Shown here in pieces: positions 2,733 to 20,426 of a DNA stretch of 64,000 bases. The DNA lies in IMG/VR virus record IMGVR_UViG_3300025924_000017, positions 1 through 64,000 of that record; one strand, given 5' to 3'. The translations under genes were made by a program, and so were the position numbers. Source of the stretch: a virus (lineage: Duplodnaviria > Caudoviricetes). Within the stretch, counting starts at the first letter, position 1, and each line of letters begins with the position of its first letter. The notes beneath the pieces are model-generated. The model was given only the letters and a program-made list of their open reading frames with translations, did no database searches and was not told the DNA's origin.

Positions 2733-2959
2733 TGTCTGATCGTGTCTCGAAGGAAGACCTCGACGTCGCGATCCTCTGGCTGGAGAGCTACGAGGCGCCG
2801 GACGGCGATGACACCGGCGAGCGCTGCCAGCGCGTCGCGGACTTTCTACGCACCGAGCAGAAGAACCGGGAACGCGAGGCTGCCGTACGGTCACTGATGA
2901 AGCAAACCGGGAAGTCGGCGAAGGAAATCCGTGCCGCGATGAAGGCGAAGGGTCTCTGA
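2732..2959 (+). CDS. hypothetical protein
   Basis: TGATG coupling; MSDRVSKEDL.. Confidence 0.7.
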   Translation: MSDRVSKEDLDVAILWLESYEAPDGDDTGERCQRVADFLRTEQKNREREAAVRSLMKQTGKSAKEIRAAMKAKGL

Positions 2960-3285
2960 TGTCCGGTTTCAAATACGAGCCCTATAAGCCGGAAGACGGG
3001 AAGCGCAGCGCTCATTACGAGCCGCTGCCGGATATCGGTGACTGGAAGTTCGAAAGCGACTTCATGGGGAACCAGTTTCGGTACACCAACCAGAAATATC
3101 CGGCCTGCATTGCATGGATACGCCGCTACGAGCGGGGCGAAGGTTATAGGCAAGAATGGCGCATTTTGCATCCGGAAAGCGGGTCGTATAGCTACGGTGC
3201 AAACGGTAAGACCCGCGAATTCAAGTCACCCGAGCGCGCGATCAAGGCGTTGGAAGCCGACTTCGATCCTATCGATCATGCGTAA
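2959..3285 (+). CDS. hypothetical protein
   Basis: TGATG coupling. Confidence 0.7.
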   Translation: MSGFKYEPYKPEDGKRSAHYEPLPDIGDWKFESDFMGNQFRYTNQKYPACIAWIRRYERGEGYRQEWRILHPESGSYSYGANGKTREFKSPERAIKALEADFDPIDHA

Positions 3286-3499
3286 AACCTTGGAGAAGGC
3301 CCCACTCCAGTACGCTGGCTGTTACACGCTTGATCTCTATTGCGACCACGTAAGCTCGCTCCACGCCTTCAACGAATTTCCACACCAGATCACCGGCGAG
3401 ACCTTTTCGGAATGCACGCGGCAGGCGCGGGCTCGCGGCTGGGTATTCCATAAGAAAACGCGGACCGCGACCTGTCCGAAATGCACTGGACATCGCTGA
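3278..3499 (+). CDS. small zinc-finger-like protein
   Basis: MRKTLEK..YCDH..CPKC. Confidence 0.65.
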   Translation: MRKTLEKAPLQYAGCYTLDLYCDHVSSLHAFNEFPHQITGETFSECTRQARARGWVFHKKTRTATCPKCTGHR

Positions 3500-3547
3500 T
3501 TATTTTGTCCCGCGACTGTTGACAATACCCAGAGCGCGTGCTATCTC
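3499..3547 (+). promoter_or_regulatory. sigma70-type phage promoter
   Basis: ATTATTTTGTCC 3499; TTGACA 3519-3524; GC-TATCTC 3540-3547. Confidence 0.75.
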
Positions 3548-3553
3548 ACCTCC

Positions 3554-3845
3554 ATCAATACGGAGGAACCCACGCCATGCCCTGAAGACACGTCGCCAAC
3601 AATCGCGCCTGAGTCACCCCAGAGCGCCCCGAGGAAAGGGGAATGTCCGCCGCCCTAGTCAGAGATAGCCGGTGGATCAGCGATAGACGGTAATGACGAG
3701 GTGACCCCTGCACCCGCTGGCGGCGGGAGACGGTGCAGGGCGTGAGAATAGTCTCCCGCCGCATCCGCAGGGAACTTTGAGTTCCCGGCGGGAACTTGCA
3801 AAATCCGCAACACAACCTTAACGAATCCAACGAGACAGTGGTGTC
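3554..3845 (+). ncRNA. candidate structured RNA or leader with H-type pseudoknot
   Basis: No credible ORF after promoter; 3706-3714 pairs with 3732-3740 (9 bp); 3720-3731 pairs with 3751-3762 (12 bp); interleaved and perfect. Confidence 0.55.
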
Positions 3846-4757
3846 ATGAATAAATACACAACCTACGCGACTCTCCTGCCTATTCTCGCGGTCGAATGGG
3901 TCGCTTTAGGGGTTTTGGGGTTGTGCAGTATCCTCTTGGTCTATGGGTTTGGTTTCTCCGTTGTGGGCGTCGGCGCCTACGCGCAAGGATTACCTCTTAT
4001 GATCGCGGCTGCGCTTGTGCTGCGTTTCAAAGGTTGGGGCCGGATCGCGCTCGTCTCCGAATACCTCGGCGCCGCCGCACTCACGGCCGGTATCCTGATG
4101 ATCTTCAATTATGCATCCTGCGCCCTTGCGTTCCCCTTGCAGGACGCATTTCTGGGCGCCACTGATCAAGCTCTCGGGTTCAACTGGCTCGCCGGATTCA
4201 ACTTCGTTGACACGCATGTGCTGGTCAAGGCAGTTCTCGCGACAGCTTATCGAAGCTATAAATTTCAGATGATCTTCATTGCGCTCTATTTCGCCGCACG
4301 ATCTGACCTTCACCGTCTGCGCGAAGTATTCTGGCTGACGCTGGTCGGAGCCGTCCTTACCTGCGCCATTGGTGCTCTCGTGCCTGCCATGGGTGCTTTC
4401 CGGGCCAATCATCTTGAGATCGCCGATTACTTGCCTGTGATGGCGGGTCTGCGCAGCGGCGTCCTGCACAGCGTCACCATCGTCGATGGCGTAGGTGTGA
4501 TCAGCTTTCCGTCGTTCCACACGGTGATGGCACTCGTGAACACGTACGCTGTGCGACGCACTTCGGCTTTCTGGGTGATGCTCGTGCTGAACGTCCTGAT
4601 GCTGCTCTCCACCCCTTTCTTTGGCGGTCACTACCTGAGCGACATGATTGCGGGCGCTGCGGTGGCGATCTGCGTCGCCTTCCTCGTCCGGGTTCCGCTC
4701 AAGTGGCGGATTTTCGTGCCCGGCTCAATGCCGCAAATGGTGCCTAATATGCCTTGA
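3846..4757 (+). CDS. PAP2-family multi-pass membrane phosphoesterase (IPC-synthase-like)
   Basis: SFPSFHT and GGHYLSD motifs; many TM helices. Confidence 0.85.
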   Translation: MNKYTTYATLLPILAVEWVALGVLGLCSILLVYGFGFSVVGVGAYAQGLPLMIAAALVLRFKGWGRIALVSEYLGAAALTAGILMIFNYASCALAFPLQDAFLGATDQALGFNWLAGFNFVDTHVLVKAVLATAYRSYKFQMIFIALYFAARSDLHRLREVFWLTLVGAVLTCAIGALVPAMGAFRANHLEIADYLPVMAGLRSGVLHSVTIVDGVGVISFPSFHTVMALVNTYAVRRTSAFWVMLVLNVLMLLSTPFFGGHYLSDMIAGAAVAICVAFLVRVPLKWRIFVPGSMPQMVPNMP

Positions 4758-4816
4758 CTCGCGACAGTGGTCTGACGTATGTCGTGATCCGCGACACCCG
4801 GATCACCACTGCCAGC

Positions 4817-5194
4817 ATGACTGTCGGCGTCCTCATTCTGCTTCTCTTCCTGTTCCAGTTGAAGCATTTCCTCTGCGATTGGCTCTTCCAGACGCCGTGG
4901 ATGTACCGGAACAAGGGGACCTTCGGGCACCCCGGCGGCATTGTCCACGCAGGCTGGCAGGCGCTCGCAACGGTCCTACTGCTTGCGCTCTTAACCGCCC
5001 AGCCGTGGGGTATGGTCGCGAGGTTGGCGCTCGCAGAGTTCGTCATCCACTACATGACGGACTGGTCGAAGATGAACATCACCCGCAAGACCGGCTGGAC
5101 ACCAAATGACTCCGAATACTGGTGGCTCACCGGCCTCGACCAATTCATCCATCAAATGACGTATATCGGGGTCATCTGGGTGGTGGTCACGTGA
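4817..5194 (+). CDS. DUF3307-type membrane protein
   Basis: HFLCDWLFQT..K..H; GLDQFIH motif. Confidence 0.8.
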   Translation: MTVGVLILLLFLFQLKHFLCDWLFQTPWMYRNKGTFGHPGGIVHAGWQALATVLLLALLTAQPWGMVARLALAEFVIHYMTDWSKMNITRKTGWTPNDSEYWWLTGLDQFIHQMTYIGVIWVVVT

Positions 5195-16904: not shown

Positions 16905-16947
16905 TTGTCATTCGACAGTTGACAATTGAAATCGGCCGTGCTATCCA
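16899..16947 (+). promoter_or_regulatory. sigma70-type phage promoter
   Basis: TTGACA 16919-16924; GC-TATCCA 16940-16947. Confidence 0.7.
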
Positions 16948-20382: not shown

Positions 20383-20426
20383 TTTGTCCTGAGGGGGTTG
20401 ACAATTAAAATCGGGATTGCTATACT
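20378..20426 (+). promoter_or_regulatory. sigma70-type promoter, probably leaderless
   Basis: TTGACA 20398-20403, TATACT 20421-20426; ATG 6 nt later. Confidence 0.8.

Follow-up and report, generated by a model that had tools for sequence, protein, structure and literature searches.

A predicted untranslated leader with interleaved perfect stems precedes a PAP2_3-DUF3307 gene pair in a distant phiCbK-like phage

The window analysed here covers the first 64,000 nucleotides of an IMG/VR record, 225,611 bp long, of a giant soil phage. The phage encodes a large terminase that carries an intein and shares 52% identity with the terminases of Caulobacter phiCbK-like phages, and a nucleotidyltransferase, located 4 kb 3' of the region under study, that is 64-72% identical to its counterparts in CcrColossus, CcrPW, Brevundimonas jumbo phages and two IMG/VR contigs. 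Because of these identities, the phage can be placed as a distant member of the phiCbK-like (Dolichocephalovirinae) group, and its host is presumably an alphaproteobacterium. We looked specifically at the gap that separates a small gene from a PAP2 gene in this record. The whole locus was recovered in identical form in an independent JGI contig and the spacing of the genes was the same in an ENA assembly, therefore the gap before PAP2 is not an artefact of assembly. The ENA sample ERZ27252311 has a contig of 389,787 bp whose gene order matches that of the 225,611-bp record; this contig may represent a concatemer or a longer form of the phage, or else be misassembled.

The gap is bounded on its 5' side by a gene for a 73-aa protein, the ATG of which overlaps the stop of the reading frame 2959-3285 (Table 1). 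This gene was left uncalled by the gene callers of both JGI and ENA. Its product was found with 36-70% identity in at least 16 phage or metagenome loci, always in different neighbourhoods, and judging from these comparisons it is to be regarded as a genuine gene. On the 3' side lies the gene for a PAP2_3 membrane enzyme, the start of which was confirmed by the alignment of its residue 17 to residue 15 of a homologue of 300 aa. In a search of 5.8 billion proteins, its best non-self match had 40% identity and was cellular; the cellular homologues are preceded by gaps of 74-156 nt. No promoter belonging to PAP2 itself was found nearby. PAP2_3 and the DUF3307 gene that follows it form a candidate module for the remodelling of envelope lipids.

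Table 1. Features of the locus, with positions counted from the first nucleotide of the window
Feature	Position	Strand	Details
Gene for 73-aa CxxC...CPKC (zinc-ribbon-like) protein	3278-3499	+	Conserved; weak positive coding score; 5' limit of the gap
Family early promoter	3499-3547	+	Three blocks common to about 25-30 genome copies
Promoter upstream block ATTATTTTGTCC	3499-3510	+	Conserved across the family
Promoter -35 TTGACA	3519-3524	+	Family block
Promoter -10 GCTATCTC	3540-3547	+	Family block
Predicted transcription start (A)	3554	+	From the 7-nt spacing in sister promoters
SD GGAGG	3562-3566	+	From sequence
Met-Pro-stop mini-ORF (ATG CCC TGA)	3577-3585	+	From sequence; ATG 29 nt past the -10
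16-codon mini-ORF	3643-3690, then TAA TGA 3691-3696	+	Coding score -0.83
Stem S1	3706-3714 / 3732-3740	+	9 bp, perfect
Stem S2	3720-3731 / 3751-3762	+	12 bp, perfect; 19-nt loop
Hairpin A	3765-3791	+	12 bp, one A·G mismatch, UUG triloop; 2 nt past S2
Alternative hairpin B	3780-3796	+	7 bp, triloop; uses the third half-site GGGAACT
A/C-rich, G-poor unstructured tract	3796-3845	+	36% A, 18% G; no good SD
PAP2_3 membrane phosphatase/phosphotransferase gene	3846-4757	+	Pfam PF14378, E 4e-32; first gene after the leader
DUF3307 membrane gene	4754-5194	+	Pfam PF11750, E 9e-9; start overlaps PAP2 stop

The promoter at the head of the gap, for which the coordinates and letters given in a preliminary description of the locus were right, is one of a family with about 25-30 sites in the genome. 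Its members are laid out as ATTATTTTGTCC, a spacer of 8-9 nt, GTTGACAA, about 16 nt and a GCTATA-like block, and the promoter core gave 11 matches against 2.5 expected. The ATTATTTTGTCC block was observed 8-9 nt 5' of the -35 at about 25 of the sister promoters, and could be an UP-like element or a factor-binding site. With few exceptions, an ATG lies 3-43 nt past the -10 in the sister promoters, and in at least six of them an SD-less ATG lies exactly 7 nt past the -10 hexamer (the promoters at 20397, 21700, 26529, 27544, 38978 and 60844, all on the + strand). The mRNAs of these six are probably leaderless, with the A of the ATG as their first base; leaderless mRNAs are common in Caulobacter-like hosts. 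By the same spacing, we infer that transcription at the present locus starts at A3554 rather than at 3548, where the transcript had been taken to begin, so that ACCTCC at 3548-3553 would probably lie outside the RNA. The distance from this promoter to PAP2, 299 nt, makes it the clearest long-leader exception in the family. Among the other members with long distances, two scored 141 and 242 nt, and the one at 16918 has an ATG just past its -10.

Two short frames follow the promoter. The SD with ATG-CCC-TGA at 3577 and the 16-codon mini-ORF from 3643 that ends in TAA-TGA were both present exactly as first read. The distance of the ATG at 3577 from the -10 falls within the range usual for the family, and the Met-Pro-stop may be read as the stump of a former gene start of the cassette. 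The 16-codon mini-ORF carries no sign of translation or conservation. We scored the region with a codon model trained on the phage's own genome; the scores of 3500-3845 ranged from -0.4 to -1.3, against +0.2 to +0.5 in real genes, and no coding signal was found in any of the six frames. The negative scores in all frames of both strands agree with the earlier statement that no long ORF occurs before PAP2 at 3846. Several stops are present in each of the three + frames of the gap, therefore no single indel restores one ordinary ORF across 3577-3845, an outcome that the preliminary description had named as fatal to a non-coding unit. A minus-strand ORF of 91 aa (3555-3830) was considered as a gene and rejected on its score of -0.49 and the lack of a Pfam match. 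A decayed gene was rejected likewise, as blastx against 9,386 ORFs of all the fetched loci gave nothing below E 0.01 and the six-frame scores were negative. Neither a tRNA nor a tmRNA was found in the gap.

No terminator hairpin with a T-tract was detected in 3500-3845. The real terminators of this genome have loops of 3-9 nt followed by T-tails, and neither S2 nor hairpin A carries a T-tract. As there is no terminator and the neighbouring genes all lie on the + strand, transcripts must run into PAP2. The best explanation of 3554-3845, with its 5' end placed by prediction, is an untranslated leader of about 292 nt that belongs to an early operon opening with a cell-derived PAP2_3 and DUF3307. 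The preliminary description had suggested an unrecognised non-coding RNA, and a part of this suggestion holds: the region is non-coding, it stands behind a real promoter and it matches no family in Rfam 15, where a search with E-values up to 10 returned 0.35, 2.2 and 4.6 as the best, all far below gathering scores. The other part, a stand-alone small RNA that is made from the family promoter and ends before PAP2, did not hold up. It would account for the strong promoter, the lack of coding and the stable hairpins towards its 3' end, but neither hairpin is an intrinsic terminator or has a T-tract after it, nothing stops transcription before PAP2, and PAP2, which has no promoter of its own, depends on read-through; we therefore regard such an RNA as very improbable. 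A terminator-like hairpin with a T-tract was seen further on, at 4694-4710 (+) in the 3' coding end of PAP2; such sites occur at chance level in the region.

The central part of the leader contains two perfect stems that interleave. All that had been claimed for them was borne out, namely S1 of 9 bp, S2 of 12 bp and loops L1, L2 and L3 of 5, 0 and 10 nt. The arms do not overlap and follow the H-type order (S1-5', S2-5', S1-3', S2-3'), with the 3' arm of S1 contained in the S2 loop, where it directly abuts the 5' arm of S2. The potential knot spans 57 nt (3706-3762) and begins about 150 nt into the leader. Its first loop, with 5 nt over the 12-bp S2, is tight, and the third, with 10 nt over the 9-bp S1, is ample. 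The stacking energies are -22.5 kcal/mol for S1 and -32.0 kcal/mol for S2. We estimated the energy of the knot as the sum of the stacking and a Dirks-Pierce-type penalty of about 11.3, a rough sum and not the output of a dedicated pseudoknot program; this gives about -43 kcal/mol, whereas the best nested fold of 3700-3765 reaches -31.3 kcal/mol, so that by this rough estimate the knot is ahead by about 12. S2 and hairpin A were present in every MFE and centroid fold, in which the arms of S1 are nearly free. The H-type pseudoknot that had been proposed is accordingly favoured thermodynamically on such a rough sum, and should form if the 5-nt loop can span S2.

To see how far such a pair may be expected by chance, we listed all perfect inverted repeats of at least 7 bp and their interleaved pairs genome-wide. 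The pair of 9 and 12 bp ranks first in 225,611 bp, the runner-up being one of 7 and 11 bp, and among simulated order-2 Markov genomes a maximum of at least 21 bp was reached in 4 of 346 (p about 0.012 per genome). Where a hairpin of 12 bp with a 19-nt loop is present, a perfect interleaved partner of at least 9 bp has a probability of 0.0043; the genome has 13 hairpins of at least 12 bp. The knot is hence unusual for one genome, at about 1-4%, yet chance cases are expected in a scan of about 250,000 windows. The nested folds gave z-scores of -1.9 to -2.5, and the minus strand gave the same. Neither stem has a single G·U pair, and with both strands folding equally, nothing marks the RNA of the + strand as selected. 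A further pairing in the preliminary description, between GTCACC (3613) and GGTGAC (3700), is right in its letters, but at 6 bp it is at chance level.

These numbers bear on the possibility that the leader is a neutral spacer, that is, DNA left over from the joining of the foreign genes, in which the repeats arose by chance or by template switching at the DNA level that perfected quasi-palindromes, with no selected function of the RNA. Such an origin would be in line with the equal folding of both strands, with the purely Watson-Crick stems and with the interleaved pairs of the genome as a whole, which number 23 against 23.0 by chance. It sits less well with the rank of this pair in 225 kb, equalled or exceeded in so few of the simulations, and with its low local probability. 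Apart from these, the exact abutment of the stems and their place behind a strong promoter are unexpected of junk, and a phage genome seldom retains 290 nt of DNA that has no use. We consider a neutral spacer unlikely on balance, though well worth keeping in view.

Downstream of the knot, hairpin A was calculated at -18.4 kcal/mol with a local z-score of -4.2, and the alternative hairpin B at -9.0 kcal/mol, which is 9.4 weaker. The preliminary description had noted GGGAACT at 3770 and 3790 on either side of AGTTCCC at 3780 and had taken them as the basis of a bistable hairpin; the letters are right, but with energies this far apart the bistability does not stand. The leader also has a chain of segments complementary to each other (3647-3654, 3719-3731, 3751-3762 and 3786-3793), and the alternative pairings 3647-3654/3719-3726 and 3754-3761/3786-3793 lie 8-16 kcal/mol above the ground state. 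The ground state was -69.8 kcal/mol as compared to -61.9 kcal/mol with an alternative forced, and explicit alternative folds reached -29.6 and -33.7 kcal/mol as compared to -45.5 kcal/mol. As the alternative pairings are much weaker, a switch is disfavoured.

The same holds for a recoding event coupled to the upstream frame or a transcription-attenuation switch, both of which had been put forward for the locus. The stops of the 16-codon mini-ORF lie 9-12 nt before the knot and the chain of overlapping complementary segments is present, as either mechanism would have it. Against recoding, the mini-ORF closes with tandem TAA TGA stops, no slippery heptamer (X XXY YYZ) was found before the knot, and stops in all frames downstream leave no open frame beyond. 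Against attenuation, 3500-3845 has no terminator and the competing folds are the much less stable ones given above. A mini-ORF with an SD in a leader with overlapping complementary segments does recall the leader-peptide attenuators of trp and ilv, but here there is no terminator, the mini-ORF lacks a run of regulatory codons and the ground state is strongly favoured. Recoding or attenuation was thus left with next to no probability.

The half-sites may also be viewed as DNA rather than RNA. GGGAACT-N3-AGTTCCC-N3-GGGAACT together with two 13-nt direct repeats 20 bp apart could form a putative protein operator just 5' of PAP2. The perfect 7-3-7 palindrome with a third half-site two helical turns away, and the perfect strand symmetry of the repeats, fit recognition at the DNA level. 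However, the motif is unique in 225 kb, no promoter-like site lies near for it to control, and S1 and S2 would be left unexplained, so we find a DNA-level site quite improbable. Even when this site, the stand-alone small RNA and the recoding or attenuation switch are pooled, the chance that any one of them is right is small.

We then compared the locus with relatives and with large sequence collections. The BLASTn survey across related phages that had been called for gave no homologue of the leader, with no match in a distant-mode blastn search against 50,697 phage records. PAP2 was not found in phages by tblastn, nor in IMG/VR with the single protein as query; a PAP2 profile recovered five IMG/VR contigs at 32-38% identity, the upstream regions of which are unrelated and have no interleaved repeats. 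With the 73-aa gene as a handle, 16 loci were obtained, none of them syntenic downstream. The nucleotidyltransferase as a handle led to CcrColossus, Kikimora, L142 (72% identity) and L143, and neither the leader nor PAP2 is present in any of these four. In CcrColossus and Kikimora small genes lie tightly packed in the corresponding stretch. L142, the closest relative in IMG/VR, has a DUF3307 homologue of 49.5% identity with neither PAP2 nor the leader, and abutting small genes precede it. In the full records of five relatives, PAP2 and the leader were absent. As relatives have neither leader nor PAP2, the arrangement of promoter, leader and PAP2 is, on the genomes compared, lineage-specific.

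The motifs themselves were searched as well. The exact pattern of the knot core had 0 matches in IMG/VR, an exact copy of the promoter at 3499-3547 had 0 matches in metagenomes, and a degenerate promoter pattern gave single chance matches only in IMG/VR. No paralogue of the leader or of its motifs was found elsewhere in the phage genome. The 21-nt junction of the stems was matched four times in metagenomes, and these matches were rejected as chance, all lying inside coding DNA for ...RRETVQG.... For the S2 stem, a scan of 185,579 genomes gave 16 unrelated GC-rich hairpins of bacteria. One uncultured proteobacterial MAG contains three copies (L158:5365, L163:6307 and L171:1896) of a palindromic element of about 100 nt with the 12-bp S2 stem; this element looks REP-type and unrelated to the leader of the phage. 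That the leader is an orphan in the collections searched, and that the same 12-bp stem arose independently in the 16 bacterial genomes, again speaks for the neutral spacer.

A different possibility is that the knot acts as a cis-regulatory operator, bound by a protein of the phage or host or by a small ligand and controlling the translation or decay of PAP2 in the manner of T4 gene 32. The operator of gene 32 in T4 and RB69 consists of a pseudoknot in the 5' RNA and an adjacent unstructured tract with the ribosome-binding site (PMC535899, PMC3014915). The leader resembles it in having an H-type knot 5' of an unstructured A-rich stretch of at least 40 nt with the start codon; 3796-3875 folds at only -8.7 kcal/mol, with a z-score of -0.16. 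This likeness and the length of the leader, the clearest among the family promoters, are in favour of an operator. So is a predicted helix that ties the AUG of the Met-Pro-stop mini-ORF to the region of the PAP2 AUG. This helix, of 7 bp with two G·U pairs (3572-3578/3838-3844), was present in the MFE and centroid folds and connects the mini-ORF AUG with positions -8 to -2 relative to the PAP2 AUG; a coupling of the two starts is conceivable, as is an artefact of folding.

The differences from gene 32 are nevertheless considerable. The T4 knot is about 28 nt long and lies at the very 5' end, as compared to 57 nt at 150 nt into the leader here, and between knot and AUG there are, unlike in T4, a hairpin and 50 nt. 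The AUG lies 84 nt past the end of the knot, and the knot does not extend into any ribosome-binding site. In T4 the knot nucleates the cooperative binding of the gene's own ssDNA-binding product, whereas the product here is a membrane enzyme of the PAP2_3 type and not a binder of nucleic acids. Besides, no Rfam riboswitch was matched, the genome has no second copy of the motif, and the leader has no conservation to support selection. An operator of this kind is therefore improbable, and we hold it equally improbable that knot and hairpin are a new selected cis-regulatory RNA that gates a captured envelope-lipid operon through factor binding or the sensing of a metabolite.

Early transcripts with stable structures close to the promoter are also found in phage HK022, where the putL and putR RNAs, antiterminators in promoter-proximal early transcripts, each have two stable stem-loops 1-2 nt apart. 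They act on RNA polymerase, which then reads through downstream terminators, and are not known to contain a pseudoknot. The leader shares with them the promoter-proximal stable stems; downstream terminators were not found here.

Closer to the history of the locus are the PeSL (promoter-early stem-loop) cassettes of T4-type phages, which undergo modular shuffling (Arbiol et al. 2010, PMC2839356). In these, a repeated strong early promoter of host type flanks small non-essential cargo within a hyperplastic region, and the cargo varies between relatives (PMC2839356). The present phage is similar in its repeated early promoter, with about 25-30 copies, and in its variable cargo, PAP2 being absent from five relatives; here too a stump of a gene start stands behind the family promoter and is followed by foreign cargo. 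The stem-loops differ, as those of PeSL are working terminators placed before the promoter, and those of the leader are interleaved, follow the promoter and carry no T-tract. Recombination may have occurred at the promoter of 3499-3547.

The reading we tentatively prefer, while giving it somewhat less than an even chance, is that the leader serves as a static block that stabilises or insulates the message, joined to an SD-independent initiation of PAP2 on open RNA. A foreign PAP2_3-DUF3307 module would have been joined onto a standard early promoter cassette, of which the SD and ATG persist at their normal distance as the Met-Pro-stop, the remainder of the leader being non-coding. The resulting leader would consist of a C-rich 5' part, a stable GC-rich block made up of the knot and hairpin A, and the A/C-rich tract of 50 nt. 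The block, at 3706-3791, is predicted to fold as one compact unit, with 21 stacked pairs in the pseudoknot followed by the 12-bp hairpin A. Being static and not a switch, it may make the message more stable and hold back upstream ribosomes and nucleases, and ribosomes may start PAP2 on the 50-nt unstructured tract independently of an SD. We have counted against this static block the missing leader homologue, the equal z-scores of the two strands, the stems free of G·U pairs and the tight loop of 5 nt.

The knot is a textbook perfect one and the first in its genome, and it still stands at p about 0.01, with no strand asymmetry and no relatives; for these reasons, topology alone is not enough to rate it highly. 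Whichever role the stems may have, the locus appears to record how a standard early cassette received a foreign gene and kept a Met-Pro-stop stump. A functional knot would provide a rare example, in a giant phage of alphaproteobacteria, of the control of a captured membrane-lipid gene by a pseudoknotted leader; should it prove to be a selected cis-regulatory RNA, it would found an RNA family with other members still to be sequenced.
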